The notes under the pieces were generated by a model, which worked only from the letters and a program-made list of their open reading frames with translations, was not told the origin of the DNA and did no database searches. A DNA stretch of 58,239 nucleotides from Trichonephila clavata (Eukaryota), in contig BMAO01019611.1 of assembly GCA_019973975.1 (NCBI GenBank), positions 76,564 to 134,802 of the forward strand, read 5' to 3'. How positions within the stretch are numbered: position 1 is the first letter of the stretch; each line of letters opens with the position of its first letter. A program made the translations under genes and the position numbers. Below are positions 1,663-45,721 of this stretch, piece after piece.

Positions 1663-1960
1663 TTCGGCCGCGGTGGCCAAGTGGTCTAGGCATCGGATCA
1701 TGTCTAGCGTGTCATGAGTTCGATCCCAGTACCACTTAAGTTCCGCCATGTAGGGGAGCGATGCACGTTAAATCTGTCGAAAGCTCAAACGTCATCCCGT
1801 TGGTGTGGTGTGATAGTTAGGAGAGGGGGGTGCCAGCTCAGGTGTCGTCCGCGTCACTTGACCATGGTTCAAACTTACGCGGACCGTCGCCAAAAGCCCT
1901 CGTGTTGCTAATCAGTGCGACGTTAATATTCACTCACTCACTCACTCCCTCGCGACTTCT
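1663..1960 (+). mobile_element. tRNA-derived SINE-like element or tRNA pseudogene. It has a Pol III A box (TGGCCAAGTGG) and B box (GAGTTCGATCCC) ~45 nt apart, then a body and a (CACT)n simple-repeat tail.
   Basis: A/B box motifs read directly. The sequence does not fold into a canonical cloverleaf, because the acceptor stem GGCCGCG has no 3' complement. A CACTCACTCACTCACTCC tail lies at ~1930-1950. Confidence 0.4.
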
Positions 1961-2974
1961 ATTTATAGTCTGCGTGGGTGCTTTCTAGCTCTTTCTCGAA
2001 AAATCCACTTTCGTCAAGGTCGTGATGTTAAAATATTTCTTCGGTAGTTTTTAGAAGCATCTATACCAGGGATGGCGAACCTTTTTGAGACGTGGGTCAA
2101 ATTTTGTTCATATTTTTTTTAAGTACTAGCTGGTGAGTCACTAATGCCCATTTGCATAAGTTATGTTTTAAAATTTTTAACTAAGTATTTTTAAAACTGA
2201 TCATCTTTAAAATTCAATTGGCTTAACGAGTAAAATAAGCGAGGTTTGATGATTTAAAATTATTTAGTAGGGTTAAAAGTTCTTAAGTGTTTGGTGCAAA
2301 TGGCAATGGTGTTTGAATGAACAAAGAGTAACGAAAATTACATTCTATATATATTGTGAAGTATTATTTTTTAGTGTATATACGTATATTTATATATATA
2401 TATATATCACTAATAATATTATTCGGGCTCCAAGTGCCACCTTCCCTTGAATATTTTCTGGCAGAGATATTTATAAAAAAATATATATTTCTGCCTTTTT
2501 TTGATAAAATGGCAAAGTCTAGCTCTATTAAAGTTGTATGCAGTCACATTCCATATTCTATCAAATTATTTTAAAAGTCAAAAATGAAGAAATTTTTACA
2601 GGGATTAATAACATGTCTGTTTTTAGAAATACTTAAGGTGCTTTTATAATTGAAGGAAAAAAAATTACTATGAACTAAATTCATGTGACGTCATAGTCAC
2701 GATAAATGCAATTATCTGTTTTCAGAAAATCAGTTCATGCACTTCGTTGTTGCCAAATTACGCTTTTTACAGAAACTTTTTTTTTTAAAAATAATATTTG
2801 TCACTTTATTTAAAAGTACATGTATAAAACAAGACTTTTTTTTCTTTAATTTAAAAATATTTTTGCAGAAATTTTCTTTTTATAACTCTTGAGCATCTTT
2901 ACCCAATTATGCAATTTGAAAATTTACCTAAGTTTTACAAATAGAATAAAAAATACGAGCTAGTTTATTGTACG

Positions 2975-3235: not shown

Positions 3236-4060
3236 ATGGATGAGAATAATGAAATGGCCGTCGCGAATTCGAACGAGCAAAAATTTGAAGCTAATAAGGT
3301 AAGCCTGAAAATTCCTCCTTTTTGGGAAGAAAAGCCTGAAATATGGTTTTTCCAAGTTGATGCTCAGTTTTCTATTGCTAATATAAATCAAGAAGAAACT
3401 AAATTTAATTACCTTGTAGCTAGCTCAATTAGATCCAAAATTTATAGAAATATATGGGATATAATTCAAAGCAATGAGAAGAATAAATATTCTTGTGCTA
3501 AAAATAGACTTTTGAGTGCTTTTAAAGAAAGTGAAGAAAAAGGCATTAAAAAATTGCTTACTGGAATTTCATTAGGGGACATGAAACCCAGTCAACTTTT
3601 GAGGAAAATGAAATCGTTGGCTGGAGATAGTATCACAGAAAAAGTTTTAAGGACTTTATGGCTAGATAAATTACCGGACTCCATCAAAAATATTTTAGTT
3701 GTTAGTTTGGAAAATTTAGAAAATTTGTCCGTTATGGCAGATAAAATTTTTGAAATAAATTCATCGCCAGAAATTTATTCTGCTACTGCAGATAATTCTG
3801 CTATGAAAAATATTCTTGAAAAAGTAAGCCTTTTGGAAAAACAGATTTCAGAATTATACATCAACAGAAGAAAATCAAGAAGCGAATTTAGAAATTCCAG
3901 TCAAACACGAAATAAAAGTCGAAGTCGATCTCGAAAACGCTTCGACCCCAAAGGAAAATATTGCTATTTTCACTTCCATTTCGGTGCGCGATGCAAATCT
4001 GAAAAATGCAGTCCGCCTTGTGCATGGAATAGAAATACGGAAAACTTCAGTCTGCAGTAA
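3236..4060 (+). CDS. Gag-like capsid/nucleocapsid protein of the LTR element. It has a basic RS/KR-rich tail and a Cys/His cluster.
   Basis: ATG at 3236, 23 nt after the PBS. The C-terminus reads RRKSRSEFRNSSQTRNKSRSRSRKRF…CYFHFHFGARCKSEKC. Confidence 0.65.
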   Translation: MDENNEMAVANSNEQKFEANKVSLKIPPFWEEKPEIWFFQVDAQFSIANINQEETKFNYLVASSIRSKIYRNIWDIIQSNEKNKYSCAKNRLLSAFKESEEKGIKKLLTGISLGDMKPSQLLRKMKSLAGDSITEKVLRTLWLDKLPDSIKNILVVSLENLENLSVMADKIFEINSSPEIYSATADNSAMKNILEKVSLLEKQISELYINRRKSRSEFRNSSQTRNKSRSRSRKRFDPKGKYCYFHFHFGARCKSEKCSPPCAWNRNTENFSLQ

Positions 4061-4140
4061 ATATTGCGACAAATTCTGCTGCAGAACATTAAAAAGCCTG
4101 TCGCAAATTTCGATTATTCGTTAAAGATCGAACGACAAAT

Positions 4141-4677
4141 TTGCACTTCCTGGTAGATAGTGGAGCTGATTGTTCAATAATACCAGCCACATCTAAAAAT
4201 AAACAATCATCTGATTATAAATTATTTGCAGCAAATGGGACAGAAATTCCAACCAATGGAATTAAAGTGCTAAAGATTGATTTGGGACTCCGCAGAGAAT
4301 TTTTATTTCCATTTATTATTGCAAGAGTTAGTAAAGGAATCTTGGGAGCTGATTTTCTACACAAATTTAATTTATTGATTGATATCAACAAAAGAAGATT
4401 AATTGATGGAATAACACAACTCAGTATTCCGGGTGAAATTTTCTCCATCACAAATGATCTTAATGTTACAACTTTAAATAAAGGTGAGAAATTTTCTAAT
4501 TTACTTTTACAATATTCTGAATTAACTAAGCCTAATATTCTACCTACTCAAGTGAAATACGATGTCAAACATTTAATAGAAACAAAAGGTCAACCAATTC
4601 ATTCTAAAGCACGACAACTTGATCCTAAACGTCTAGCAATAGCTAAGGAAGAATTTAAATTTATGCTTGATAATTAA
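4141..4677 (+). CDS. Retroviral-type aspartic protease (pol, -1 frame relative to gag)
   Basis: LVDSGAD active-site motif. There is no ATG, since the TTG 'start' is an ORF-finder artefact. It is expressed by frameshift or readthrough. Confidence 0.7.
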   Translation: MHFLVDSGADCSIIPATSKNKQSSDYKLFAANGTEIPTNGIKVLKIDLGLRREFLFPFIIARVSKGILGADFLHKFNLLIDINKRRLIDGITQLSIPGEIFSITNDLNVTTLNKGEKFSNLLLQYSELTKPNILPTQVKYDVKHLIETKGQPIHSKARQLDPKRLAIAKEEFKFMLDN

Positions 4678-4679
4678 GT

Positions 4680-5806
4680 TATTCGTCCATCTAGCTCACA
4701 ATGGGCGATTCCATTGCATCTTGTAACCAAGAAAGATGGAACATTCCGTCCATGTGGAGACTATAGACAACTTAATGCTCAAACATTTCCTGATAGATAC
4801 CCAATACCACGAATAGAAGATTTCCACCATATTTTAAAAAAACACTACAATATTTTCTAAGATAGATTTAATTAAAGCCTATTATCAAATACCTATCGCA
4901 GAAGAAGATAAATGCAAAACTGCAATTATAACACCTTTTGGTCTATACGAATTTAACGTAATGAGTGTTGGCTTAAAAAATGCTCCTGCCACATTCCAAA
5001 GATTCGTACATGAAGTTTTTAGAGGATTAGATTTTGCATTCCCTTATTTAGACGATATTCTTATTGTGTCAACTAATGAAATGCAACATGAAGATCATTT
5101 AAAAATAGTTTTTGAACATTTAAACACTTATGGATTAAAAATAAATATTTACCAATCTGTGTTTGGAGTTGAAGAAATTGAATTTCTAGAATATCTTATT
5201 TCGAAAGAAGGTTCTAAGCCTCTCCCAGAAAAAGTCAAAGCCATTACAAATTATAAAAAACCAGAAACTCTACATAATCTTCGTATTTTCCTCGAAATGA
5301 TAAATTTCTACAGAAGATACTTAAAAGATGCGGCGAAAAACCAAGCCTTATTACACGATTATTTAAAAGGAGCCAAAAAAAGAGACAAGAGAAAAATACA
5401 GTGGACAGAAGAAGCCGAAAAACAGTTCGAAAATTGTAAAAATGACTTGAGCAATACAGCACTGTTATCATTTCCAAATCCCGATTTACCTCTTGCATTA
5501 TTCACAGATGCTAGTGATACTGCTATAGGTTCAGTTCTACAACAATTTGAAAATGATACATGGAAGCCAATTGGATTTTATTCAAAAAAACTAAACCCTA
5601 CACAACAAAATTATAGCACATACGATCGTGAACTTCTAGGTATTTATCTTTCCATTAAATATTTTAAACATTTGCTAGAAGGAAGAAAATTTACAGTATA
5701 TACAGATCACAAGCCTTTAACCTACGCATTTTTACAAAAACCTGATAAAGCATCCCAAGGCAACTACGACAACTTCAATACATTTCTGAATTTACAACAA
5801 ATATAA
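4680..5806 (+). pseudogene. Reverse transcriptase + RNase H of the LTR element, with one frameshift near 4850-4960
   Basis: RT motifs [13 protein letters not shown]…[11 protein letters not shown]…[13 protein letters not shown] (frame 3), then FAFPYLDDILIVS (YLDD box) and TDASDTAIGSVL…YSTYDRELL (RNase H) in frame 2. A poly-A run at ~4838-4848 shifts the frame. Confidence 0.75.
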
Positions 5807-7202
5807 CTTATATTAAAGGAGAAGATAATATAGTTGCAGATGCATTTTCAAGAATCGAAACAGTTACAATAATCGACTATGATGCAATAGCAGATGAACA
5901 AATCCAAGATATAGAATTGCAACAGTTAATGAAGAGTAACTCTTCTATAAAATTCAAGTCATGCACATTACCATCAGGTAAAACACTCTGGTGTGATATT
6001 TCCACACCAATATAAGACCCTACATTCCAAAACAGTTTCAGCAACAAATATTTCAACAAATTCATGGTTTTTCACACCCTGGAATTAGATCAACTATTAA
6101 ACTAATGACTGAAAAATTTATCTGGCCAAATATGAAAAAAGAAATAAGATTATGGGCAAGAACATGTATTCCCTGTCAAAAATGTAAAGTCCACAGACAT
6201 ACTAAATCAAAATTTGGAGAATATGAAGTACCTGATGCTAGATTTAGTGTGATACACATTGATTTAATTGGTCCACTTCCACCATCGCAAGGCATGACAT
6301 TTTGTATGACCTGTATTGACCGTTTTTCGTGTTGGATGGAAGCAGTTCCCTTGCCTGATTGTAAAGCAGAGACAGCTAGCAAAGCCTTTTATGAACACTG
6401 GGTTTGCAGATTTGGAGTACCTGTGAAAATAATTACAGATCAAGGAAGGCAATTTGAATCCCAGTTGTTCAGAAGTTTAGCTGCTATTTGTGGAGCTAAA
6501 GTAGCTCATACAACTTCCTATCACCCTCAATGCAATGGGAAAGTGGAAAGGTTACATAGGACCTTAAAAGGGGCAATCAAAGCTCATAACAACATCAAAT
6601 GGACACAGACTTTACCAACGGTATTGTTAGGATTACGATCGGCTCTACGTGGTGACACAAATTACACCATTGCACAAATGGTTTATGGACAAACTATCCG
6701 ATTACCAGGAGAATTTTTCGAGAAACCGAAAAACATCTTGGATACAGATACGTTTGCGGAAGAATTACAGAAACAAATGGATCAGTTACAACCACTGAAA
6801 ACTCGCCGACAACCTTCTCAAAAACACTTTGTCCATAAAGACTTGCATACCAGTACACACGTGTTCATTCGCGTCGACAGAGTAAATAAACCACTTGAAA
6901 CTCCTTACGATGGACCGTTCCTAGTGGCTAAAAGATACGACAAATATTTTACTGTGACAATTAAAGGCAAGGACATCAATATATCTGTAGACAGATTAAA
7001 ACCTGCATATTTGTTGTTAACTGATGGTGATAATCCTGATCATCTCAAACAATCAGAACATGCACCAACCCTGCCCGACAAAAAACTGATTGTGCAGACA
7101 AAAATTGAAAAACAGCCACCAGATTTGCTGGAAAAAGGTGTCCAAAAAACAACTACACGCTCTGGTAGACACATAACGTTTCCATCCCGTTACAGAAATT
7201 AG
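5790..7202 (+). CDS. Integrase (HHCC zinc finger, DDE core, GPF module). The N-terminal linker TNITYIKGEDNIVADAFSR is in frame 3 before a stop/shift, and the ATG ORF is 6105-7202.
   Basis: HGFSHPG…H…CIPCQKCK (HHCC); IHIDLIGPL / ITDQGRQF (D,D); YDGPFLV (GPY/F-type motif typical of Ty3/gypsy IN). Confidence 0.8.
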
Positions 7203-7568: not shown

Positions 7569-10500
7569 CAATGTAGAACACGTGTTTATATTATCATGTG
7601 ACCGTCATGAATTTAGTTCATTGCAATGGGTCGATTCATCACTAGAGGGCGCTGCGATCGTGGCCATCATCGCGTGATTAACAACGTGCGATCATGTAAA
7701 CAAATAACAGTTGATCGTATGACACTTGTGGTTGCGCGCTAACTTTCGAATTTTCAAACATTATTATTTTATATTCTTTAAATTCTTTTTAGTACTTTAA
7801 AATAGTTTTATAATAAATTTTCTACTTTTTTTAGTTTTTGTATTGTGACCAAATATATATATATAGTTTTAGTTTATAGTATTAGATTTAAGTGTTTAGT
7901 TTATACTTCTATCCTTTGGCTTCGAATTTTTGTATACTTTTAGGTTTAATAATTATTTTTTTATTAGTGCCAGCCATATTGTGATTAATAAATTATGCAA
8001 CGCTCTTTTGAACAAATTGCTTCTTGAAATTGGATAAATCTACTAATATCGCGAATCATTATGTAAGCGAGTTTTTCCGAGAAAAATTCGTGCAGACTGT
8101 AAATAGAAAGTAGCTCGCCAAAACAAAACATTGTTATGTCTTCTGTCAGCAAGAGCGATTAGTTAATACTTCGGCTGTTGAATAGGACCAAAGACTGTTA
8201 ATCAACTTATTATGATGATTGGATAATAGAGATTCCATGTAAATGTATAACCGTTACCTGAATACATTACTTATTTGTATTCCTAGACACTGTTAGTTGT
8301 GTCTGAGTGCTGTGAAGACCTCCTGGGATTTTGTGAATTCTAGCGTTGTGGCGTTTCTAAGGATTGTTTTAAGTTTTCATTGCTCCTGACCCATTCTTTG
8401 TAAGCGCAGGTATTTATTTCTTACCGAATTTGTGACATTGACTATATTTTTTTACATAGAAACTTCTTATAATTACAAAAAAGCTTGTGAATTTAACTGT
8501 TATTTTCTAATATTCATATAAAGTTTCCTTTTTGCTGTTCTTGAAAATTCATTTCGGTATTATTATTAGGACATCAAAGTTTTTAATGTTAATAATTCTT
8601 TTATTTTTTTAAAATTGTAAGGAAATATTTGTTTGCTTTACATCTATTGGACAATTTATATGCAATTCAATAACTCATTAGAAATAATTTGTAATAAAGA
8701 ATAATCCAATAAAATTTAATCATTATTCCTAAAAAAATTATGTATTAATATGATTCCTTTCTTTAACTTAATAGTGTAAGAGTATTTTCTTTTTTAAACT
8801 TTGAAGACAGTCTAAAGGGAAATTTCTAAAAGAAATTTCAAACCTTTGTAAATGATAATTACTAAGTAAAGTCAGACAATCAAAACTGGCAAATGTGTTA
8901 TTTCATTATAGATTCATCATATATTTCGAAAAATCTTACTATGTCTTGGGAATTTTTATAGAACAGTTGTTTAAAAAATTAATATACAATAACAATGTTT
9001 CAATTTTATGTATCCATATTAATGCAAATAAAGATTGAAACTGACAAAAAAAAATACTCTTTTGGAATACATCTTAAAAAAATACTCTTCATAAATACAT
9101 AATGAAGCAATGTCACTGATAGTCTTTCAAAAGAATATGAAAATGCATTTTTTAAATTACAATGGATTTCTTAATTAAAAAAAATAAAATTTTCACATGC
9201 TTCACTTGTATAAAATCATGTAATATTAAAATTAAATGTTGATAAATGATGCAAGTTAAATAATTTTAATTACTAATTTAAACTAGCTAACAAAAATTTT
9301 GTATGCTCCAAAATGTAAAAATTTTCATGAAAATAATTTAGCATGTTTCAAACAATTTCTAAAATTAATCCTATATTTTAGTATGATTCGTTTTTTTTTT
9401 TTTTCATGGGGACAATGATTTATATAAAAAAAATTCAAACATTTGTAGGTGATAATTCTAAATGTTATTATTTTACAACATATCTTTAAAGGCTTCATAA
9501 TGTATTGGTACAAATCATACTATTTTAAGGCCACACAATGTGCTAAACATTTCACAAACAATTTTGACATTTTCTTATGGCCAATATCATTGAGAAGCTT
9601 GCCACCAAATTTCAGATTTGATAATAAATTAGTTTTAAAGATATTTGAAGAGCTTAGGTTTTGGTTTCAGTTTCATTTTAAAGCAGTTTTCCACTTTTAA
9701 ATTGAATTAAAAATATTTTTGAGCCCAATCAACTCTTGCAGTGTGAAATGGTTAATTATTTCAGTTCTCATTACTAAAAGCATTTCTGCTTGATAATGTT
9801 TTGAGTTCTCATTGTTACTTAATTAAGATTGTTTTCAAGGCTAATTTTTGTTTTAAAAATAGTTTATATAACTTGAAAGCTTTATCATTAATTTTTTCTT
9901 GTTGGCCCAAACATTCTCAGGTTGCTGTGAGAAACAATATTTCGAAGAGATGGACACTACTGAAAAGGATGTATCTAAAAATCACCCTCAATTAATACTG
10001 CAATAAGACTTTTGAATTCAAGTATTGCAGATAAAACTGAATATTCCCATGATGTACTTAACTACATGATAATATATTGTCGTACTATATTTTAAAATTT
10101 ATTGCGTAATAAAGTTGTGCAATAAAACTCAAACTTGCTAAACTGTGCCCCAATTTAAAACTGATTTTTTTTTTTTTTTTTTACAAACCTGGTGATTTTT
10201 ATAGCTAAAGTTAGTATCATTATTTTATACATAAATACTTTGTATTTCAAACAGTGCTGGTTTAAGCTCATTTCAAGCACTGGGTACAGAAGATCCTCAA
10301 TTTTTAATAACAAATTCAATACTTTTTTAAACTTGCCTTTGTGTAAAATGCCTATAACATGTTGATCTACTTTTAAAAAATTATTATACAACATTAAAGG
10401 AATGTTTCATCAGAAAAGGTGCAAATATTTTAAAAAATTCAATTTAATTATCCTTAGTTTTAAATGTATTTTTCTACTTATTAAATTATATATAATTTAT

Positions 10501-12121
10501 AAAAATAGTATAATTTATCAATAAACAATAGATGGCTCCAAAATATAAGTTAAACTTGTAAAATAGAAATTAGCATATTGGATCGACTTAATATGAAAGT
10601 TTTTGAATAATAATAAATATTTATCCATGGTGAAAATGAATTTTATTTTTACAACACAATGAATTGTAAAAAAGAAAAAATTCAATACAATATATATAAA
10701 AATGAATAGTTGCATAAAATTTCCATTCACAATTTCTACTGGTTATGTATCTTGACCGGGTATTGTATGTGTAGTGCATGCAAACTAAAAACTTATTTGG
10801 AGAAATGTATTGACATTTCATTGTTATCACTAATATGTATCTAAAGTATCTTTTTATATATATTTATATTCACATTTTAAAAAAAATGGAAGATAAAAAA
10901 ACATCAGAGAGAGGGGAAAAAAGATACAAAATTCTCACTCTGAAGTTAAACGTGTGAAAATATATTATTAAAGATTAAAATCATTATTATACATCAAGTT
11001 ACTAAAGTTTATCATGAATAAATTGAGTTCCATTCTAATCAAAATCACAGTTTCTACTACTTATAAGCAATAACTAATTATAGCATTAGTTTACCAGGAA
11101 AATCCTAAATTTCAAGAAACTTTTCAGTTTCCTAAATTATACTTGAGCAAAATATTAAATTATTTCAAAGTTTGTCTAAGAAATGCTCAATCAGTACGCA
11201 TACCATTTAAAAACTTTGAACTTATGTATTAAACTGGCAAATAATTTTGCCAAGCCAAAACGCATCAAGAACTTTAAAAAGTATTATTATTACTACTGCG
11301 TTCATGAGCTATGATGCATATGAGCAGGAACAGTTCCAGTTATTGGCTGTACATTGCAACAACACCCCACAGAATCAAATGTCTATACATAAAGCCATAT
11401 TTGATTTCGTGATCCTAATTCTGAATAAATATACAATTGATGCAAGTACTCTTCTTGGGTCAATATTTGTAAGTAACTCAATGTAACAAATTTATTCAGG
11501 ACTTATAAGCAGGATAATATCAATATACATGTCTTTTAGACTTTTATATTTATGTAAAAATAAATCTAATGATATAAAGCAAATCTAATCTATAATGATA
11601 AATCTTCTACAAATTGTGCAAATACCTATAAATGCTTATTTGTAATACATAGTACAAAAATTTATACATCTCTGTGATTAGAGGCGGATTAAGCGGCTGG
11701 CGGCCGCCAGGGGCCCCGAGCACCAGCAGGGGCTCCAAGCTGATAGACTTCAGTTATAAGTTCAACGTGCAACAAAAAATCTTGTGATTGCAAATCCAAT
11801 GATTACCCACATTTGAATCGTATAACAATTAGTGTTGCCCTCATATATTACATGTAATTGCGGTTAAAAAAAAAAATCCGTCTTTTTTTTTTTTTTTTAA
11901 TATTTACCTAAACTTTGGTCTTTAATATATGTTTTCGGTTCCAAGTTTTTAAAAAGTTGATCCCAGATTTCTTTTTTCAATAATGATCCCAGATCTCAGA
12001 CTATAAAAAACTACCAATGTTTTTAGTTCTTTCGAAAGAATTTAGTATTTGAAGGTTCGTGATTTATTGTTATCTGGATTTCCGTGTTTATATTTTGAGA
12101 ATGTGGGGAAACAGATCGAAG

Positions 12122-12287
12122 CAGTGTCGGATTAAACGACATGGAGGCCCCTAGGCAGTCGAGTTCTCGGGGCCCTGTAGCCTGTTTTTGGAGCACTAAC
12201 AGAAAACAGAACATGCTTTTGTGGGCCCCTAAAAAGCACGGGGCCATAGGCAACTGCCTACTCCACCTAACGAGTAATCCGGCACTG
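12122..12287. mobile_element. 166-bp hAT-type MITE nested inside the hAT element. It has CAGTGTCGGATTA…TAATCCGGCACTG termini and a perfect 8-bp TSD GATCGAAG.
   Basis: GATCGAAG at 12114-12121 and 12288-12295. The termini are related to the host element TIR (…CGGATTAA…). Confidence 0.6.
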
Positions 12288-15200
12288 GATCGAAGTATTT
12301 TGTAAATTTAGTATCAGTTTTATTTCAGTCAGCATGACAGAAAAAGTGAAATATTTAAGGGAAATTGAAATTTCTCTAAATTGATGAATGAATCAAATAG
12401 TGAAATAGATGAAAGTTATTTTTTGGAAAAAACTGTAGAGGATCTTTGGCTATTGATATAATTGATCACAGGAATATTTGCATACTTTCATAAGGTATGA
12501 ATTTTGCTGGCATTTTTTACCATTGGTCAACTTAAATTTGATTAACTTTTAAAGTTAAAATTTCAGGTAATGTGCATCTTGTTCTTTAATTTTTTTATTG
12601 TTTTGGTTTCATAGGATCATTTTTACACCATTTGCTTTCATATGTTCGATTTTGTGTGTTTCTAGTTTGATAATGTTTTCCTTTTAGTATTTCTACATTT
12701 TAAATTTTTGTAATATAGAGAAAGGGAACTATGTACAGGGCCAGCCATGTTGGTGGTGTGGCGGATGCTGTGCGCAGGGGCCCCAGAATAATCAAAAACT
12801 AAAATGTACTCTTGCATATGAAAACTTGACAATATTCCTATCGTAAGAAATGTGAATTTTGTCGTAAACATTACTATTGTAGATCTCTGAAATTCAACAA
12901 TCTGCAAACTAATTCTTGAAATCATGCAGACTTTAACGTTTCGCACCATCACAGATGAAGCATATAATAAGAAAGGATTTTAAATTCTGAGAAACATTCC
13001 TGAACAACATTTCTTCTTATCAGGGGCGTAGCTATCACCGTATCAATGATACGGGCTCCCCTAGAGGCTCTGGACGTGTGTAAGCAAAAAGTCGTAAAAT
13101 ATTATCAATGGTCATATTAAGAGTTCCTTTTTACGTTTATAAAATAGTATGTCACTGGCATAAAACGATATAAGTTTTCGGTGTGAATTCTGAATCTCAG
13201 GAAACGCAATAAGAAAAGTTTAAAAGCTGGTAAAATTACTCAAAATAATGAGAAGACAAGGAGTGGTGTGATCTTTGAATGTAGGAAAAACTTCTCATTC
13301 AAAGTAGATCAACAGAAAGATCGTTTGAAGTGAAATACAGATAACACTTATTAGGATGGAAAAAATCCATTCTCAGAATGTCATTTGCCTGTAAATGACA
13401 ATAACCCTTTCGTCTATTGATTGATTGACTGTAATAAACGTCGCACTAAGAAGCTACAGGAATCCCTTAGTCGGAATTTTTTTCATAGATGGTCCAGTGA
13501 AGGAAAGTATTATATTATATTTATCCCGGTTCTCTTTTTTTTTTATTTCTGTAACAACTAAGAGACTGGATATGCATTCATGGTGAGCAAGGGCTGGATA
13601 ACTGCTTCCCGTTCCGATAAAAGATAGGACCATAAGCGCCTGAAGTCTTCTGTCACCCTCCAAGTCTATAGTTAATTATTTTTCAATTAGTATCAATGAG
13701 TTCTCAACGTTGGTTCTCTGGGGAGAGGGGGGAGAAGCGCGTTAAAGAAGAATTTCGGCACATTGGACAAAGCACGATCAAGATTTATGACTGGCTTAAG
13801 GACGAATGAAAAGAATGGGACAGAATGACCCTGAGAAAAAGACCCCTTTTCGAAGTAAACTGAGGAAATTTTGCATCAATTTGACTTCCGAACTAATTTC
13901 TTTTAGCTTCCTGCGCTTATACAGACAAATCGGAGAACCGTGTTTAAACAACAAAAAAAGGTAACTATATTTTCATTTTCAAATTCTCTTTTAGATTTTT
14001 AAGATTTAATGCGCAGGTATTTTAATCAGTGCGTAAGATAAAGTGAAAAAAATATTTTGTTGCATTTGTGTCATTACTATTTTATTTATTTATTTATTTT
14101 TCGATTTACATACATAAATATAAATAACTGCCATCAGTTTCTTAGAACATTTTTATGATTATTAATATATTTAAATGTGTTTTCGTAGCTTGAATCTTAA
14201 AACATTTTCGATTGGCATTGTTATTCAAATGAAAAAATATTATTTGCCTCTCTTATAAAAATAATTTCTTGAGTCAGTTATAAAAAGCGATAATAGTTCA
14301 TTTAAAATACAAAACATTAATGAGATTTTGAGTACATTCATTAATTATTTACCATACTTAAAAGAATCCTAACAATAACTCGAAATTGAAATAAAACGTT
14401 ATTATATTTATTGTGATTTTTTGTTTGTAATCCTAACGTATTACGATAATTTTGTTTAGTAATATATGAGCCAATCTATAATTTCTAAATATTTCATTAA
14501 AATTGTTTCAAACTGTTAAAAGAATTTTCAAAGAAAGAAAGTATATTAAGTTTACTTAAAAATACACTTTTCTTTCTTTTTATTGAGCGACGTGAAATAA
14601 ACACATAATTTTTCTAATATACTTTAAAACTGCTAAGAGAACCATTATTTTGTAAGATTAAATTTGAAAAGCATAAATTCTTTTTGTCTTTTTTGTATTT
14701 ATTGTCATTTTAAGAGTGATTTGCTCACGATACTTTTTTGATTAAGATCTTTTGTCCAGACAACTTGAAGGGATATTCAGTGCAATCTAATAATTAAATA
14801 TATGTGTATAACTAATTATAAAAATACATAAAAATCGTATAATTATTTTAAAATGCATAATTTCTTTAAAATATTGTATAACATTCTGTATGCTTCTAAT
14901 AAAGTTAATCAAAATTCTGATCTATAACTATATTTAAAATCTTTAAAAAAGGCAACAATGCCAATACTATAGCAGAAATTTCTTTAAAAAAGCATTTAAT
15001 GAAATGTTTATTTTTACAGAACAATTATAAATGTTGAAAAATATAGGTACTATATTTATAGGTAATTGCTCCTAGTTTAAAACTATTTAAAGTGGTTGCA
15101 AAATGTATTACAGAAATAAAAATATGATAAACTCAATTTATAAAGTAGATAAGAGAGAGAGAGAGAGTGATTTCAAACAAAATAGAAATGTGAAAAGTTA

Positions 15201-15873
15201 TTCAATATGTTGTAAGATTGCTTAATTTTGAGAAATGGAACTTTGAATGTAGATATAAATTTACTTGAAAAATTGTAGATTTCTTTTGTGATATTGTGGC
15301 ATTTGTGTATGTCAAACAGTTTTGAGTTATCTCAGAAATTTCAAGTTATTTTGGAAATGTTTTATTGTTCTGTTTAGTCACAAAGTATTAAGATTTTTGA
15401 AAAAACAAACAAGTATAGTAATAATACTAAACTAGAATGTGTAAAAAATATTTGTATTCAGTTAATGTTTTATTAACTTATATTTGGAAACTTTAAAAGG
15501 AAACTTTACAAATCAAGAGTATTATAATTGTTTTTCCAGTTTTTAAAAGAAAACCTTAGAATTTTGGAATGCTTACTTTTGGTTGAGACATTTTAATAAT
15601 TTTGATTATAAGTAATCCGGAAGCTAAGCTATGTTTTGTTCTAGAAATTAAACTATGATTTCTGTAAAGAATAAAAAAATTAAACAAAATATGTGTGTAT
15701 TAAATCGGAAATTTCATACTTCTATCACACAGAAAATTTGAAAATAGATAAAATGTAATTTTATGAGAGTTTGGGGGGGGGGGGATTTAATGCTCTTTAG
15801 AAATTTTAGCTAAATTTGGACTGGATATTAAAAATTGCAGAGGGGGGGGGCAATCATTTGATAATGCTCTAAT

Positions 15874-17300
15874 ATGTCCGGGCGGTACTCAGATCTACAG
15901 GCACGTATTAAAGAACACAGTTCAAGCGCAGTTTATATTCCTTGTGACAGTCGTTCTTTAAATTTAGTAGGAAATTTAGCAGCAGAAAGTTGTAGCGATG
16001 CAATTAAATGTGTTTTATGCTTGTACACACAGAAATTATTCTATTTTTTTCTGTGTCAATCCATCGCTTGCGAATTTTAAATAAAAATCTGGAAAGAAGT
16101 AAACATGCAATATCTGTGAAAAAAATTTCAGATACACGATAGTCAGCAAGAGCAGATGCCGTACGAGCTATAAGACTTGGTTATACACACATAAAAGAGG
16201 TCTTGGCTGAAATCCGTGATACAAATGAGGAGATCACAATACTGGAGACAACTTCTCTTTTGATACATGGTAGAATGGTCATTGGGGCACATGATCTCTG
16301 ATGAGGTCTTCATCCCCTATCTTGAATTTGAGGGAGCATTAAAAATTACACTTGCCATGTTTAGTGGAAGGTGGGGAAAAGTATGAAAAGTTTAAAAGTT
16401 AAAAATTTAAAAATAAAATTAAAATTAAGAAAGTATATTAGATTGCGACCTGAAATAATAATAATATAAGGAAAAATTTCTGGAGCTATTTTTGTTTGCG
16501 TTGGGGTGTTTGGTAAAAGAGTGGAATACTGAGTCGACCGCGGCTAACTCCGTTGCCGGAGGCTAGCTTACGGCCAACTTAATCATTGGGTACTTTTGAA
16601 ACACATGGAAAAGTATGAAACTTCCCTAATGACCGTGATTTGGGATACCATACTCCAGAGGGTGAGTGCTACTAGCAAAGCATTACAATCAGTTGGGTGT
16701 GAGCTATTAAAAGGATCTAATCTACTGAAATATTTAGAAAATTATATACAAAATTTCAGAAATGAATTTGGAAAAGTAGAATAAGAAGCAACTGCTTTAC
16801 AGGACTCTCATTTGAAAAGGAAGTTGGACAAGCTTGCAGGCAGCGAAAGAGAAAAAATATTTTCGGTGAAACTAAAGAAGGTCATGAATTTGAAAATAGG
16901 AAAAATTTCTTGTTCAACTCATTCTATGTCATATGCTATAGGACAAGTGCTGAACTATCCCGAAGAGCTGGAACTTATAAAACTGTTATAGAATACTTTT
17001 TTGTATTTTTTGAAGAAAGGTTTTCTGAAATTAGCAAGAAAGCTGTACAAAAATTAAAGGATATTTACAAAGACGATATTGAATCGCTTAATTTTGACGA
17101 TGAATTGGATCAGTTTTTGCTATTTTTAAAAGAAAACAAAGATACTATGAACACTCCAATAGAAATTTATTGAGTTGCAAAAGAAATGGTCTCGACTTTC
17201 CCTAATGTCGATATACTTTTTAAAATATTTTTAACTATACCGATATCAAATACATCTAGTGAGAGATCTTTTTCGGTTTTAAAGCGCGTTAAAAATTATT
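15874..17300 (+). pseudogene. Decayed hAT transposase (ZMYM1-like / DUF4371 + hAT C-terminal dimerisation domain), fragmented over three frames
   Basis: MSGRYSDLQARIKEHSSSAVYIPCDSRSLNLVGNLAAESC (DUF4371 C-end). …ARAIRLGYTHIKEVLAEIRD…. …FPNVDILFKIFLTIPISNTSSERSFSVLKRVKNYLRSS (hAT dimerisation). The N-terminal half is missing. Confidence 0.7.
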
Positions 17301-19079
17301 TAAGAAGTAGTACAGCATGTACTGAAGTACAGAAGTACTGAACAGCATGGCCATTTTATACATAGAACAAGGTGTTTTGGACCAAATAGATACTGCAAAA
17401 ATAATCGATGAATTTGCCCAAGAAAAATCAAGACGTAAAGCTATATAGCAAAATTTTAAACTTTTAAGTTAGGTGTTTTCTTTTTAATTCTTTAAAATAA
17501 AGTTAAAAGTTTTTTTTGAGCCGTTAATTTTTTTTTAGTTATACATTTTATTTTGAGAATTTAAGGTCAGCGAATTTTTTTGACTCTTCAGCCCAGGGGG
17601 CCCCAAACCTTTTACCGCCAGGGGCCTCCAACTAGCTTAATCCGCCTCTGTCTGTGATAGGTTTATACCACAGTTAAACTCTGAAAAACAAATGTTCTGT
17701 AATAGATACCACACAAATATATTACAATTATTTATTTGTAAAAGAATTATGCCTCTTTAAAATGCCTTTTTTTAAAATTTTGATCATGTAAGAGTGAGCA
17801 GGACTTTTATATTCCATAAATGGGCATAAACAAATTCTACTATACACAGATTTTAATTAAAAATTTTAATACCTTAATTTATAATCACATATTTGGAATT
17901 CAATTCTCGATAAATCATATCTTTTACCTAAAATAGCGCAGGGAGTAGGCTTTCAAAATGTTGCATAATTTTTTTACATGTAATTTTACATATGTTAAAT
18001 GATAATTTTGACTTCTAATGCTAAAAAATGGTACTTGATTCATCATCAAGTGTAAACATTAATGAAGCTGTAGTAAATTAAAATATTTTTCCATTTTTAT
18101 AGTGAATGCTTCTTGAAAATGTTTTTTCTTTTTCCCTGTAATATTCTAAAATTATTAAGTAAAACAAATTTTTGATTTATATGTATGTATACTTGTTTTT
18201 GATACGACATATATGGTTACATATCAGATTTTTGCGTCCTAATTTTTTAGATAATTAAATACTGAAGTACCTCTCCTTAATTTCTGTGAAGATGTGTAAA
18301 ATAAGTAAAATTTAGATTAACCAAACATATGTTCTATTGTTTATGTGTTGGACATACCTGTCCTTAATTTTACCAAAAACATATCAATGGGTTGCAAAAT
18401 ATTATTTTGGGTGGACATTAAGGTATTTTCAATATTTAAAACATTGAATACACTAAAAAAATCTCTTGCAATGAAACCCTCTGTTAAAGTTTTCATATGC
18501 AAATCACTTACTGTTATTTGCAATGAATTTATTTTTCTGTATAATATCCTTCTGCTTCTATTTTGTTTTGTAAAAGGCAAGCTTATCCAGGAAGGAATGG
18601 AAAAAGCTGGCTAACGTAACGTTCGCTTTTCCTGTATTAAAAGAATTTTTAAAATTTTTTTACATAATTATGCATGTATATGTAACTACTCATTAATTTT
18701 AAGCTTATAAGGACGTAAAATAAAAATTACATGAAATTTAAAATGTAGTATAGTAAAATTGATAAGTAGAAATTTTCTTTTATCATAACTGTTTTTTTAA
18801 TATTGGGAAAAGTTAATGCAATCAGTGTTTTAAGAATATAGATAGATACTTGCTTCTCAATTTCTATATGATCACGCTCAGTACTGAACTGATTTATTCC
18901 CTGATTTCTGAAAAAATAATGAAATATGAATCCCACAAATTATTAAAATATATTGTACGTTCTTCACTATAAAGCATTATACATTTATGGATGCATATTT
19001 TTTAAAGTACATATGAACTTTGTTCATTTACTTGTATTTGTAAGTGTATTGTTCTGAAAATTACAAAGCAATGACTTTT

Positions 19080-19300: not shown

Positions 19301-19819
19301 TACAATAAAAATTCTAATGACTGCAGCATAGAAAATTTATAATGTATTAACGTTATAAACACAGTTAGGAAATGAAACGAACAAAGTTATGAAGATATTT
19401 CTATAAATTAAAAAGTATTCTGTATTGCTACTAAATGGATGGCAAAATTTAAGATTGAGATTTTATTTCAATAAAATTTAACAGAACAAATTTCTTTATT
19501 AAGACAGTTCAGTTTCAAATTTTTCTCTATAGTACTTGTAAAATTGTCGAAAATAATCTTAAAGTAACAAAAACAAGTAATATAAAAAAATAAGTCAATT
19601 CCTTCTTAGGTAAGAAAATTTTTGTTTTATATATATAGTTGCTTTTTATCAAATAGTTGCAATTAATATAAATATGCGTATACATATGACAGAATCAAAA
19701 CATTATGTGGCAATTAATTTTTATTAATTATCATTAAAGTTTTGCATTGGTATCCAAAACAATTGTGTATATAAAATTTCAGTTCAACTTCATGTTTTAA
19801 AACATGAGAAATAAATTAA

Positions 19820-20210
19820 AAGTAAAAAACTTTTTTAAAAACAAGCTTTTATTTAAAAGCGCTAAAAAGAATAAAATAAACTTTTCCTTTAAAACTTTTT
19901 TTACTATCAACTTATAACGTCATTACACAATTTATATGATATAAAAGCTTGTCGCGAGGTTTATCTGTGTAAATAAACAAGTAAAATAAATAACTTGACC
20001 TGACTGATTTTAATTTTTTAAAATTCAAACTAAGTAAATACGAGTACTTAAATCTCGTGTGACAAGCTTTTATATCATATAAATTGTGTAACGACGTTAT
20101 AAGTTGATAGTAAAAAAAGTTTTAAAGGAAAAGTTTATTTTATTCTTTTTAGCGCTTTTAAATAAAAGCTTGTTTTTAAAAAAGTTTTTTTACTTTTTAG
20201 TTATCGCTGG
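19820..20210. repeat. Large near-perfect inverted repeat (hairpin/foldback). Arms are ~19820-19953 and ~20061-20210, with a ~107-bp spacer.
   Basis: Arm 1 …CTTTTATTTAAAAGCGCTAAAAAGAATAAAATAAACTTTTCC…ATATGATATAAAAGCTTGTC is the exact reverse complement of arm 2 GACAAGCTTTTATATCATAT…GCGCTTTTAAATAAAAGC…. Confidence 0.85.
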
Positions 20211-20782
20211 ACAGGCTTCTCAGCCTGTTCAACTCATTCAACGTTAGTTCGCCATCCCTGGTTTAGCTGAATCAGTTCTCGCAAAAAGGGTATTAGACGA
20301 AAAACACAATCTTTTTAAATCCGTAATTTTTAAGCAATATTTTCAATCTTCGTGCAGATCTTGGGTAATATTGTTCTACATACGAAAAAAAGGTTTCGTG
20401 AGATTATCTTCATAAATGACGAAGTTATTCAATGTTTAAAATTTTGACTATTTTTTGAAAAATCTTAAAGAATATATTATTTATTTGGAATATTTTGAAG
20501 GTAAGGGATATATTTCTCTAACATCTTCGAAGAAAAATCTAGTTATTTATTAAAAAACTTCAAAAGGTATTTAAAGATTTGTATTAATCAATAAAATGCT
20601 TAAAATTCAAAACGCATGTTGTAATCAAAAAAGCAAGTTTTATCAACTAATGATAATTTTTTGTTGGACATCGAATATCTTCTACGTAAGAATCTATTTT
20701 TTTAGTTGCTCATGTCATCTTTAGAAACTTGATTTTGAAAAAATAATTAACCATCGCATTATTTTTATACAGTCAGACCTCC

Positions 20783-20975
20783 ATGTATAACGAATGTATG
20801 TATGTATGTATGTATGTATGTATGTATGTATGTATGTATGTATGTACGTACGTACGTACGTACGTACATACATACGTACATACATACGTACATACATACG
20901 TACGTATATACGTACGTACATACATACATACACACACACACATACATACATACATACATACACACACACATACAG
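20783..20975. repeat. Compound tetranucleotide microsatellite (ATGT)n-(ACGT)n-(ATAC)n-(AC)n
   Basis: Read directly: tatgtatgtatg… tacgtacgtacg… catacataca… acacacac. Confidence 0.95.
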
Positions 20976-22079
20976 TGTAAGTTAAATAAAAGCTTGTAAA
21001 AACCTTTACAATTTTGGACACAAGTCGCCAAAAATTATGCCAACATGGATGTATTTATAATTCTTAGAATAATTAGTTTTAATCAATTAATTTTTATTAA
21101 TTAAAATTAAATTTCTGTATCGTCATGCAAAATAATCATGTTTTTAAATTTCAGCTCCTTCGAGCGCTTTAAAAATGTATTTTACCAACGATTGAAAATT
21201 TGAATAAGATGAATAAATATGGAGAGAGTGTAAACTAATAGTAGGAATTGAAAAAAAAAAGGTAATCAACTACATACTTAACAAATTCAGAGCATTCATA
21301 ATAGATCACAGAAGTGATACCCTGATCTGTGTATGTTTGCAAAATTAAAAATCTTCGAATTCGAAATGCTAAGAAAATATTTCAGACTCTTTTTAAAACT
21401 TTAAATATCGTCAGAGCGTATTTGATAAAAACAAAAAAATATTGAAATTGAAGTAATTAAAAAGTGGTCTTTTTTTTAAAATTTCTTTGAAAGAAATTTC
21501 TTTTGGAACATCTTTTAATTTATGTGATACTGAAGATTTATTTCTTCTCTTGAAAATTCTTTGGGTGGATGGTGGTTTGGAAAAATAAAAAACTATCTAT
21601 TCTTTAGTGGAAACCGAAAAAAGCTTTCTTACCTGCAGGCAAATTTTTCTTTTGCATTGTAGCAATTTAATATTAATTTAATTTATAGCAATTTAACCGC
21701 TACAGTATTTTATTTCTTACATCATAGTAGATGCAAATCCGAAAATTCCGCCAAAATACTCAGTCGAATCAAACACGTGGCTATTTGTTTTGTATATCAT
21801 CACGTGATTATGACGTCAGGTGTATCGAGTCCATTTTATTATAGATATTTCCTAACGATAATATTTTGTCGAGATATATATTTGTTATAAATAAGGAATT
21901 AATAATTGGTGTAAATTATTATTTGAAAGTGATTTAAAATTTCCAATTAAAAAATTGGATAATTATAAGACATTAAAGTTAAGATATATTTTTTATCACA
22001 CGTAGTTACTGCAGTGAATCCCAACAATTTATTTACTGAAAGATAATATGAGCATATTTTTATTGATAAAAAGAACAAA

Positions 22080-22620
22080 AAATAATTCAGTAATTCATTC
22101 GCAAGCGATATCCGAAGACAAAGTAAAGCGATTTTAATGCAATAAATACGTCAGCGAAAGCAGAGTAATGCTTTATAGACAATAAATACGTCAGTTTTCT
22201 AAATGAAGACGGTATCTGTAGACAAAATAAAGCTATGTGCCAGTATCCTCAGTAAGTACAGTTTCCTGATACAGGGTAAAGCTGTGCGTCAGTATCTGTA
22301 ATGAACGATGGTGTCCAAAGACAGGGTAAATGTATACGGCTACAATATAAACGTGAGCTTCAAAAGCGAGGACAGTTTTCAAGACAGGGTAATGCTACGA
22401 GTCAGCCTCCTAAATAAGGGCTCTCTCCAAAGGCAGGGTAATGCTATGAGTCAGCATCCTAAATGAGGACGGTCTCCAAAGAAACGGCAAAGCTTTGAGT
22501 CAACATCCTAAATGAGGATGATCTCCAAAGACGGGGTAAAAGTAAATTGACACAATAAAAACGTGAGCTTCTAAGGCGACGGTGGTTTCCTAAGACAAGG
22601 TAAGGCTATATTAATATAAT
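22080..22620. repeat. Minisatellite, ~10 degenerate units of ~49-55 bp (…AGTCAGCATCCTAAATGAGGACGGTCTCCAAAGAAACGGCAAAGCTTTG…)
   Basis: Successive units AGTCAGCCTCCTAAATAAGGGCTCTCTCCAAAGGCAGGGTAATGCTATG / AGTCAGCATCCTAAATGAGGACGGTCTCCAAAGAAACGGCAAAGCTTTG / AGTCAACATCCTAAATGAGGATGATCTCCAAAGACGGGGTAAAAG…. Confidence 0.8.
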
Positions 22621-28488: not shown

Positions 28489-29796
28489 TTAGGTTATTGT
28501 AAATGTTAGTATAAGAATTTCTATTATTTTAGCGGCGCCCTTAGGGGGCTTGGGGAAGCAGGGGCAACCTTTCCAGTTGGCTATATGGCCGTAGATTTGA
28601 CAATTAATACAGTAAGGGGTCTCTAGCCGTTGTTTAATGGGGCAATCTCTGGTAATGTGATCATCGCCACATTTTAAGCAACGAGGGGTCATATGGCAGT
28701 TTTCTGCGCTGTGGGAGGAAGGTATTACATGTGTAAAATTGTGTTACACCTCTTCCATCGTAACCTTCTACCCTGACGCGGAAGTAGTTAAGATTTTTCA
28801 GATCAAATATTTTAGCATTGGTGAAGTTTCTGGGGAGAGTTATCAAGAACACTGGTAAAGCTTAGTTGGTCCTACGACCTATGAGCCTGGTTGACCTTTT
28901 CAGGTGTGAAACCAAGTTCTTTCAGGTCAGCTTTAATTTCTACAGGCTTCGTTACTTTGGGTAGACCTTTGATTACTACTTTAATGGGCCGTTCGCTTTT
29001 GGGTTTAATCACAACAAATTGATATTTAAGATTTTCTAAGAGTTTAAGTAAGTCGCGGTGCTGATCAAAATCGTCAGCATAGAGTTTAAGAAGATCGCCT
29101 GTTAGGCGCATTCTGAGCTTGGGGTAGTGGGCTGTTAAAGTTTTTACAGGACTCCTGTAGGTGTCAGTAATTTTAAGCATTACAGGAGGGGGCAGTGTGT
29201 TCGCGGATAGAGTTACCTTCGGGACCGATGCGGTGGCGTCGTCGGGAATCTAGGGGCGTTAGACTTAGGTGCTTAAGAATCTGGATTTTCTTGAGAGCAA
29301 TTGGCGAGAGCCGAATATCTATTCGGAGAAAGCTGTACTGCAAAAGCAGAAAGTTGATTGAAGAGACTTCTTTTTCTTGTTTTCCTAGGGAGTTCAAATT
29401 CATTAACGTTAACGTTTAGAGTTGTTTCTTGGATTAATTTTACTAGGAGAAACTGCAGGCGAGTTTTTTGGGGTAGAAATTGGAAGTTTTAGCAGGGGCT
29501 AGGTCTTGAAAAGGGAAGCCAGGCGTAGTACAAACAGGGACGGAGTCAAAATCACTCACCGCTATTGTCAGGGAGTTTTCAATGTTCTGGAGTTCATCCA
29601 TAGCATTCTGGTAAGAGTGATCATTTTCATGGTCAGGGTAGGACTTCAGATCTTCGACGATAGCTAGCTTGTGCTTCTTGATGCGCTGCATTCGCTCCAG
29701 TTGAGTCTTTGCGTAGGCTTGTTGCTCGTATAGGGATCGTTGAAGAGGAGTGGTTGGTGATTGTTCCATGTCCGAGAAATCAGGTTGAGAGGCCAT
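28489..29796 (-). pseudogene. LINE ORF1 (nucleic-acid-binding protein with a CCHC zinc knuckle), split over three ORFs
   Basis: Minus-strand ORFs 29443-29796, 28872-29180 and 28489-28692. CCHC: C-X2-C-X4-H-X4-C twice in MTPRCLKCGDDHITRDCPIKQRLETPYCINCQIYGHIANWKGC. Confidence 0.65.
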
Positions 29797-40708: not shown

Positions 40709-41367
40709 TCACAAAGTTTTTTCCTTGGTATGAATCTGTAAATGTTTTTCTAAGCAATGATTTTGTGAAAAACCTTTTTTACACATTTGACAAACATAAG
40801 GCTTTTCATTTGTGTGAATGTGTAAATGTGTTTTTAAATTAGCACTTCGAGAAAAAGACTTTTTGCATATTCCACAAACATGAGGCTTTTCTGCAGTATG
40901 TATCAATAAATGCATTTTTAAATTACTACTTCGAGAAAAAGACTTGTTGCATATTTCACAAACATAAGGCCTTTCTTTTGTATGAATACGTAAATGATTT
41001 TTCAAATCAGAATTATATCAGAGAAACACTTATTGCACATTTCACAAACATAAGGTCTCTCCTTTGTATGAATACGTAAATGTCTAATTAAATCACAACT
41101 AACATAGAAAGACTTATTGCATATTTCACAAATGAAAGGCTTTTCTTTGGTATGAATCAATAAATGTCTTTTTAAATGACATTTTTGAGAGAAACCCTTG
41201 TTGCAGCTTATACAAACATGAGGCTTTTCCTTTGTGTGAATACGTAAATGTACTATTAAGTTACTTCTTTGAGAGAATGACTTGTTGCATGTTTCACAAA
41301 CATGAGGCGTTTTATTGCCATGAACCTTGAAATGACACCTTGAGTTATCATATAAAGTGAAAGCCAT
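40709..41367 (-). pseudogene. C2H2 zinc-finger gene copy 1 (7 fingers), disrupted by a 2-bp insertion/frameshift at ~41003-41020. It also has a small deletion at the N-terminus relative to its paralogues.
   Basis: Minus ORFs 41002-41373 and 40709-41005 are both strings of …[16 protein letters not shown]…H…IH fingers. AATTATATCAGAG here versus AATTATCAGAG in the paralogue at 47870. Confidence 0.7.
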
Positions 41368-42890
41368 TTTCACTAAGATTTTTCACAGCTGTTTAAATAC
41401 ATAAGTCTATTTAAAATCCACAATAAAGAAAATGGGTCTTGCCGTCTTGAACAAAACAGGAGTTTATATTTAAGCCTTCTGTAAAAAAACAAAGTATTCT
41501 TCAGTATGATGTTGAAAATGTAATCAGAATTTTATTCTACATTTTAATTTATGAAAGAAAAAAACCAGCTGGGTATCACAGCTTCATAGAACTGGGTAAG
41601 AATTTTTCCCCTTATATTTGAAGAAATTATTTGGTTCTTTTAGATAGGATTTTTACTGAAATGATCAAAATCTAAAAAATATATATTAAATATTAGTTAC
41701 TACAAAAATATATTCAAGTACTACTTTAGAACTATGATCAGGTTAACACAAGCAAAATGACAAGAAATTATAAGAATATCAGGATAAAATGAAAATACCT
41801 TCTTGAAGAAGAATTCAAAGAGGATATGCATTGTGTAATGGTACAAAAAAACAAGGAAAATTATAAAATTGGAAAGAAAAAAAAACACTGTAAGGCCTAT
41901 ATTTTACCTGTTTGACTTTTGATCTCAATTATGGTTCAAATTACAATTAACAAAAGCTACTTGCAATATACAACCTAATTTTTAACAATGTAACAATATC
42001 ATGGGAGAAGATGTTTGAAATTAGAAAAAGATACTCTTTGTAATCTTTTGATTTACACTTTTTTTATGAAAAGAAAATTTTACACCAGAAATTATGCAAG
42101 AATTAGACTACTCTCCTACCATGGTAACACAAAAGATATATACTCATACTTTATAACTGAAGAAACTTAAGAATAACTTTATTGAAAGAATGGGCTGGAT
42201 CCTAGCTGAGCACACTTCATGGCGACAAAATTTTTGTGATAAAAGTTTACAATATGGTAAGCCTGCAAAATTTAGGAAATAGTAACCCTATTCGGACTGC
42301 ATTTTTTCAGTTTTTCCTGATTTGGACAGCAGTCCTTTTTTTCCTGACGGTCAACTTGAAGACGTGTAAGATTTTTCTAGAAAGCTAAAATTGAAAGAAT
42401 GAGTGGATTTTTTTTCTTTTTTTTAAAAAAAATGAAACAACTGCTGAAAGAATCTTTGTTAGACAGAAAAGGAGATGTGTTGATAAATCCAATTTGGACG
42501 ATGGTTTTTCTCACTATTGCATCTTGCAAGCACTGGTTTTTCTGTTTCTTCTTGAAGCCATTATGGAAACCACGTTAATGTTTTGAAAAAAAAAAAACTT
42601 CTTCCTTAAAATATTACGAATAAAATGTCAAACTATATGAAAAAGACTTATTAAAAAACTTACATATAAGGTTTTCCAGTTGTTATTAAAGTTGAAACAA
42701 AAGAAATCCTACATTCTTCAAAATATTCCACAGCTCACATTTTTCTTTGGTTTAAAAGTAACATGTGTATGAAAGAAATGTCTCGAGAGAAAGAAATGCT
42801 GCATCTTTCCCAAACATGACTTTTCCTTTCTATGTACATGTAAATATGTAATTTAAATTACTGGCTTTGGAAAATGCCTAGTAACACATC

Positions 42891-45694: not shown

Positions 45695-45721
45695 GTGTCC
45701 AGCATCCTGTAGCCCTGTGTA

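Follow-up and report, generated by a model that had tools for sequence, protein, structure and literature searches.

What is the 394-base inverted repeat at positions 19811-20204 of a stretch of Trichonephila clavata DNA: a transposable element, a source of hairpin RNA, or a by-product of DNA copying? The stretch analysed, referred to here as the window, comprises 58,239 nucleotides of contig BMAO01019611.1 (assembly GCA_019973975.1), and positions given below without the name of another locus are counted from its first letter. An earlier note, made from the letters of this DNA, had described a near-perfect long inverted repeat and put forward three candidates, namely a foldback or MITE-type transposon, a hairpin-RNA locus and a recent palindromic duplication. 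Among these options the last proved the best fit to the evidence. Our tentative preference is for a young, probably neutral local inverted duplication, which fold-back or template-switch synthesis would have produced within the decayed remains of a hAT-type element. The repeat has the look of something ordinary and recent that DNA copying or transposon activity left behind, and does not look like a functional element.

The repeat was confirmed and folds back almost perfectly on itself. Its parts, for which no strand is assigned, are as follows.

19811..19953, left arm, 143 nt, with the perfect-core part at 19824-19953
19954..20060, spacer (loop), 107 nt, unique and non-palindromic
20061..20204, right arm, 144 nt, with the perfect-core part at 20061-20190

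A repeat search of the window recovered core arms of 130 nt (19824-19953 and 20061-20190) that are complementary at 129 of 130 positions (99%) across a gap of 107 nt, and among the long inverted repeats of the 58-kb window this was the sole one not made of microsatellite sequence. Outward extension of the arms to 19811 and 20204 was significant when anchored extension was compared with shuffled flanks (score 11, P=0.0035), whereas inward extension over 11 quasi-complementary nucleotides, seen in a gapped alignment, was not significant in an anchored test of the same type (P=0.19). The arms were thus set at 143 and 144 nt and the spacer at 107 nt, in agreement with the arms of about 135-150 bp and the 107-bp loop first described. 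Both arms contain the internal palindrome AGCGCT, so that the GCGC palindrome mentioned earlier is also present. The setting is AT-rich and non-genic, as had been proposed, with a GC content of 20-21% in the arms and 23% in the spacer and no coding signal locally; Tandem Repeats Finder detected no tandem arrays inside 19811-20204.

Folding in silico bore out the expected hairpin: a single RNA strand is predicted to reach a dG of -204.7 kcal/mol (z = -31) and a single DNA strand a dG of -149.4 (z = -29), and in neither case did any shuffle come near. We considered whether the spacer might be the degraded centre of a once continuous palindrome and rejected this, since its central 84 nt, aligned with their own reverse complement, scored below the shuffle mean and are not self-complementary. 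Each arm (19811-19915 and 20099-20204) is weakly self-complementary about its AGCGCT centre, with 43-nt sub-arms that match at 72% (P ~0.03), perhaps the remains of an earlier and smaller palindrome; a single arm folded alone did no better than shuffles (z = -1.2).

The two arms differ at four places, by three substitutions (A/C at 19815, T/A at 19817 and A/G at 19922) and one homopolymer indel (A6/A7 at 19824). The difference at 19922, a CpG to CpA change, is the single mismatch in the 130-nt core. CpG to CpA is the fastest neutral substitution, and a core whose sole difference is such a transition is what would be expected of young, neutrally decaying DNA. The other three differences (two substitutions and the indel) fall within the outermost 14 of 144 columns, a clustering with P ~0.01 over the outer 20 columns in a statistic based on just four differences. 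In a recently mobilised MITE the transposase-binding termini are expected to be the best conserved part. Here the outermost arm ends are the least conserved, the opposite of that expectation, and these outer differences sit better with error-prone copying, or with microhomology at the junction of a template switch, than with a mobilised transposon.

Arm divergence amounts to 0.8-2%, of the same order as the heterozygosity of T. clavata (1.44%; PMC9932165), and at an assumed neutral rate of ~3e-9 per site per generation it would correspond to an age of roughly 1-4 million generations. The earlier note held that a hairpin of this kind is unstable unless young or selected. Youth fits the divergence; instability was overstated given the 107-nt spacer. 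The fragility of inverted repeats drops steeply with spacer length, and a spacer of 52 bp between paired Alu elements is enough to abolish the stalling of eukaryotic forks (reviewed in PMC7999016); with a spacer of 107 nt, eukaryotic inverted repeats lose much of their fragility (PMC7999016; PMC10164571). As the spacer lowers fragility, selection is unnecessary to explain the persistence of the repeat.

The repeat adjoins mobile-element sequence on both sides, and three flanking features are needed to follow the argument.

19711..19816, plus strand, short dispersed repeat, here called R, which adjoins the left arm; its homology stops at ~19812, at the start of the palindrome
20205..20246, minus strand, subterminal segment of 42 nt between the palindrome and the hAT-type terminus
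20247..20260, minus strand, hAT-type terminal inverted repeat CAGGGATGGCGAAC, 43 nt beyond the right arm, with the element interior leftward, toward the palindrome

A second copy of R lies at 21058-21174 of the window, and R forms tandem units of ~175-180 bp in Nephila pilipes (locus L002, 18882-19360). R is AT-rich; a small palindrome, which reads TCATGTTTTAAAACATGA in the window, marks its end. No arm homology was found in the sequence that follows R beside its other copies. The 42-nt segment on the right contains a small 7-bp hairpin at 20211-20228, and neither the rest of the window nor the 132.5 kb searched from related spiders contained a homologue of it.

The earlier note had pointed to a recurrent 16-mer near the right arm as a hint of a repeat family. 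The recurrence is real, although its positions had been placed 3-4 nt off: ACCAGGGATGGCGAAC occurs exactly twice, at 2065-2080 on the plus strand and at 20247-20262 on the minus strand, and no shuffle gave a match. The family is real as well, but it consists of elements that share a hAT-type terminus, here placed 43 nt outside the palindrome, and not of copies of the palindrome. The core of the 16-mer, CAGGGATGGCGAAC, which has an exact second copy at 2067-2080 (plus strand), forms the terminal inverted repeat in a family of hAT-type elements. One complete member was found in T. clavipes (locus L003, 14530-16043; 1,514 bp), with CAGGGCGGGCGAAC at one side, the reverse complement of CAGGGATGGCGAAT at the other and a flanking 8-bp duplication, ATATACAC / ATATATAC. 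The element ending at 20260 shares its YARNG-type terminus with this bona fide member. The family terminus consensus is CAGGG(A/C)(T/G)GGCGAA(C/T), and the family is non-autonomous. The flanks of all four termini are alike (A-T/G-A/C-T-A-N-A-C), which indicates a target preference around A-T-N-T-A-N-A-C; this target-site preference, and not element sequence, accounts for the few bases outside the terminus at which the window copies match. Elements with this terminus had nothing else in common and no long internal inverted repeats, and the terminus string had no match in a full-text search of the literature.

The element ending at 20260 lacks the pair of termini and the 8-bp target-site duplication (TSD) of a complete hAT insertion. 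No partner terminus with the matching flank GTTTAGCT is present in the window, so the element is a one-ended remnant; the terminus at 2067 is flanked by ATCTATAC. Both window copies of this terminus are one-ended. A single giant nested element delimited by the termini at 2067 (plus) and 20260 (minus) was considered and rejected, because the flanking 8-mers differ (ATCTATAC versus GTTTAGCT). Since the interior of the element ending at 20260 points left, the palindrome lies in its subterminal region.

A second hAT element, 2.1 kb to the left of the palindrome, is complete-ended. It spans 11679-17650 (5,972 bp), with terminal inverted repeats TAGAGGCGGATTAAGC / CAGAGGCGGATTAAGC and a perfect 8-bp TSD, TCTGTGAT, and its ZMYM1-like transposase, frameshifted and decayed, has a Dimer_Tnp_hAT match. 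Four N. pilipes copies stop at the same nucleotide; they are 89-93% identical to the window element and equally similar to one another. The palindrome was considered as a part of this element and rejected, given the clean bounds set by inverted repeats and TSD and the 2.1 kb that separate the two. Just within the 3' end of the element, at 17594-17630, lies CAGGGGGCCCCAAACCTTTTACCGCCAGGGGCC, conserved in the N. pilipes copies, which has the appearance of either a subterminal motif or another, nested terminus of hAT/MITE type.

The remainder of the window, with a GC content of 31.8%, is rich in similar material. The published T. clavata genome measures 2.73 Gb, with 31.80% GC, 53.94% repeats and 1.44% heterozygosity (PMC9932165). 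Other features of the window and of the related loci are listed here.

3236-7202, Ty3/gypsy-type gag-pol in which the gag, protease, RT and integrase ORFs are long and open
~26.4-29.8 kb, minus strand, LINE
40767-48786, minus strand, C2H2 zinc-finger cluster with ORFs of 123, 284 and 399 aa and an 84-bp finger periodicity
among the window's long ORFs, fragments of Tc1/mariner, pogo-like, MULE and BEL/Pao elements
window 1711-1928; L002 19790-20030, 20730-20960 and 31863-32030; L001 18369-18563; L003 12974-13220; L005 17372-17557, copies of a repeat with a tRNA-like head

From 17.65 to 24 kb, none of the ORFs is credibly matched in Pfam. The coding signals near the repeat are all transposon-derived, and the repeat is in non-coding, TE-derived DNA. 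The hAT pseudo-protein has its best match in N. pilipes and the integrase ORF in T. clavipes; the element at 3236-7202 shows only ~78% DNA identity to the closest fetched T. clavipes copy (L003). A LINE-like ORF of 117 aa (29443-29796, minus strand) is identical to the T. clavata hypothetical protein TNCT_704891 (GFR31637.1). The closest spider relatives of the zinc-finger cluster are 61-63% identical (T. clavipes 'zinc finger protein 112'), and its ORFs look like a fast-evolving, lineage-specific ZNF cluster. The multi-copy repeat with a tRNA-like head, 73-85% identical among copies, is present in all three spider species sampled; the head was judged by eye in an L002 copy (GGTAGTCTAGTGGT...GTTCGAGCC), and the repeat is, from its sequence, probably a tRNA-derived SINE. 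To the right of the palindrome, a microsatellite at 20790-20975 switches strand sense from (ATGT)n through (ACGT)n to (ACAT)n and scores as an imperfect palindrome of 70-84 nt. This is most simply explained by CpG deamination, on either strand, of an ancestral (ACGT)n array, plus slippage. At 22381-22539 a 49-bp tandem repeat (3.2 copies) lies inside a pair of 170-bp direct repeats (74% identical; 22228-22608).

In such surroundings the main alternative to a local duplication, because such elements are common, is that the repeat is one copy of a family of palindromic MITEs or foldback-type non-autonomous DNA transposons, inserted so recently that its terminal inverted repeats are still near-identical. 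We regard this as possible but on the unlikely side. The size, the AT-richness and the hairpin are compatible with it: at 394 bp, the repeat has no coding capacity and forms a hairpin over its whole length, as is typical of MITEs, about 54% of the genome consists of repeats (PMC9932165), and the window is packed with DNA transposons. It thus resembles palindromic MITEs, including hAT-type ones, in being ~400 bp long, AT-rich and non-coding, in its long inverted arms and in its place within a TE-rich region by a hAT-type terminus. Possession of terminal inverted arms of 143/144 nt is trivial in this respect, since an inverted repeat is what was being examined in the first place.

The marks of insertion point the other way. 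A scan of all start and end combinations within ~40 nt of the repeat ends yielded no convincing TSD and no direct repeat of at least 3 bp at mirrored boundaries, so that no TSD directly flanks the termini. The longest match between the flanks was an 8-mer, GTTCAACT, at the near-mirrored positions 19782-89 and 20227-34, and an 8-mer match between flanks of such size arose in 232 of 500 shuffles, which is chance level. This 8-mer was weighed as the 8-bp hAT-style TSD of a 437-bp element and rejected: besides its chance-level occurrence, no inverted ends are found there, and the alignment of R copies runs unbroken through 19782-19812, across the left copy of GTTCAACT. Homology that continues across the supposed left junction means that GTTCAACT is not an insertion scar. 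A TTAA duplication of the piggyBac type was likewise rejected, as the right tetramer is TTAG and arm similarity runs on past it. A TA duplication (19812-13 and 20202-03) is formally compatible with insertion because TA is itself palindromic, and in DNA of 21% GC it is uninformative.

Nor do the termini resemble those of a mobile element. The outer ends of the repeat read ATAAATTAAAAG..., which to our knowledge is unlike the terminus of any known superfamily (not YARNG, CAGT, CCC or similar); conserved, superfamily-matching termini are thus lacking, and conservation within the arm is poorest over its outermost 13 nt. For the hAT-type terminus that stands 43 nt off on the right, the window contains no matching terminus on the left. 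Palindromic MITEs differ from the repeat on each of these counts, as it has only a trivial TA for a TSD, no superfamily-type termini, outer ends that are its worst-conserved part and a hAT terminus on one side only. Drosophila Foldback (FB) elements share with it long inverted arms and a short centre, but their arms are made of tandem subrepeats and reach kilobases, whereas Tandem Repeats Finder reported no arrays in the spider arms.

A transposon family should also be visible as further copies. In the rest of the 58-kb window, blastn, nhmmer and an exhaustive Smith-Waterman search found no second copy of arm, spacer or right flank; the best Smith-Waterman score was 27, against a null of 24.7 +/- 2.5, and a candidate diverged arm copy at 7773-7840 was rejected because its score lay inside the null distribution. 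With nhmmer, no copies or fragments of arm, spacer or right flank were found in 132.5 kb from six loci of N. pilipes and T. clavipes. Exact-pattern scans of prokaryotic-genome, metagenome and viral collections gave no match, which spider DNA would lead one to expect. The copy search covered ~190 kb in all, and in a genome of 2.7 Gb a sample of that size would overlook a family with less than ~10,000 copies, which leaves room for a MITE.

The pattern as a whole, a near-perfect inverted copy with a unique spacer, no convincing TSD, imperfect outer junctions and a single locus, is that of fold-back or template-switch synthesis; an adjacent inverted copy, a unique spacer and the lack of a TSD, by which a fold-back duplication is recognised, were all found. 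For larger inverted duplications that have spacers, fold-back or template-switch synthesis is accepted as the origin (PMC3907307; PMC10766183). The repeat is like the human fold-back inverted duplications with spacer (PMC3907307) and the products of ODIRA-type template-switch models (PMC10766183) in that an inverted copy stands beside the original, with a short unique spacer, no TSD and a single locus. It is unlike them in measuring 143 bp where they range from kilobases to megabases, and in lying within transposon debris.

On the reading that we prefer, a local inverted duplication, some 143 bp of AT-rich, transposon-derived, non-coding DNA would have been copied in reverse orientation 107 bp from the original. 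A nascent strand would have copied back along its complement and then rejoined the original template, triggered either by an error of replication or by gap repair that went wrong in the surrounding decayed hAT-type element. One arm and the spacer would be ancestral and the other arm the copy, and since the duplication the core would have gained a CpG transition only. The structure was observed directly, as were its uniqueness in the sequence searched, the TE-derived and non-coding surroundings, the lack of a TSD and the placement of the arm differences, whereas we infer the mechanism, the neutrality and the age of the duplication. The structure lies within the remnant of a hAT-type element, and from the behaviour of Ac/Ds-type elements the duplication may plausibly have arisen when a gap left by transposon excision was repaired wrongly. 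The same position counts against the preferred reading in one respect: with a hAT-type terminus 43 nt away and the repeat inside mobile-element sequence, a TE-borne origin of the palindrome is also plausible.

A different proposal is that the repeat is a hairpin-RNA (hpRNA) locus, transcribed and folded into a perfect dsRNA of 130-143 bp that would be diced to endo-siRNAs, with selection for pairing keeping the arms identical; we consider this improbable. The extremely stable predicted RNA hairpin described above would be capable of forming dsRNA, and Drosophila hairpins of such kind are made into siRNAs via Dicer-2 (PMC12553114; PMC10317233). If transcribed, the repeat would share with the Drosophila hpRNA endo-siRNA loci a long, near-perfect intramolecular duplex. 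Those loci have arms derived from target genes and yield Dicer-2-dependent 21-nt siRNAs, whereas the arms of the spider repeat are not coding-like. At 20% GC and with no match elsewhere in the window or in the six related loci, they leave no visible target, and neither a nearby host gene nor a recognisable promoter was found. The core mismatch would become a G:U pair in a minus-strand transcript, a point without weight because any transition mismatch yields G:U on one strand, and youth explains the near-identity of the arms equally well.

Searches for RNA and protein relatives also speak against an hpRNA locus. Rfam gave nothing at gathering score in the window and nothing at E<=1 in 19500-20500, so that no curated RNA family match marks a known structured RNA or miRNA precursor, and no tRNA was found in the window. 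A 69-aa stop-free translation that runs through arm and spacer, compared with 1.84 billion proteins, returned one spurious hit and nothing meaningful. The narrower version of the proposal, a newborn, lineage-specific Trichonephila hairpin-RNA gene that would have arisen by inverted duplication in a dead hAT element and would be transcribed and diced to endo-siRNAs, is at least as improbable.

An assembly artefact, in which a chimeric fold-back long read or an amplification chimera entered the consensus, is very improbable. Long-read basecalling errors can mimic homopolymer-length and CpG-site transition differences, and two of the four arm differences (the A6/A7 homopolymer and the CpG-site transition) are of these kinds. 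Fold-back chimeras, however, normally mirror all upstream sequence to the read end, and here the inverted copy is just 143 nt long, stands 107 nt away across a unique spacer and is followed on either side by sequence that is also unique, so that an artefact would need two precise mid-contig strand switches. Two independent head-to-head insertions of the same ~143-bp SINE- or MITE-like element, 107 bp apart, are the least probable explanation of all, for although the weak self-complementarity about AGCGCT might make the arm a small palindromic unit, no direct repeat flanks the right arm and those beside the left arm are just low-complexity A/T 7-8-mers, a search of ~190 kb gave no solo copy of this unit, and the arm alone, as noted, folds no better than shuffles.

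As it stands, the repeat is another young palindrome in a spider genome of 2.7 Gb and 54% repeats, and its significance is very little. As a tidy example, on a small scale, of an inverted duplication that has a spacer and lies in transposon debris, it is of modest value. It would matter only as a working hairpin-RNA locus, a structural polymorphism or a fragile site; a newborn hairpin-RNA gene, if that reading were true, would show a chelicerate RNAi locus as it comes into being. For the genus, the repeat points to a hAT-type element family, with the terminus CAGGGATGGCGAAC, that is common to Trichonephila species.
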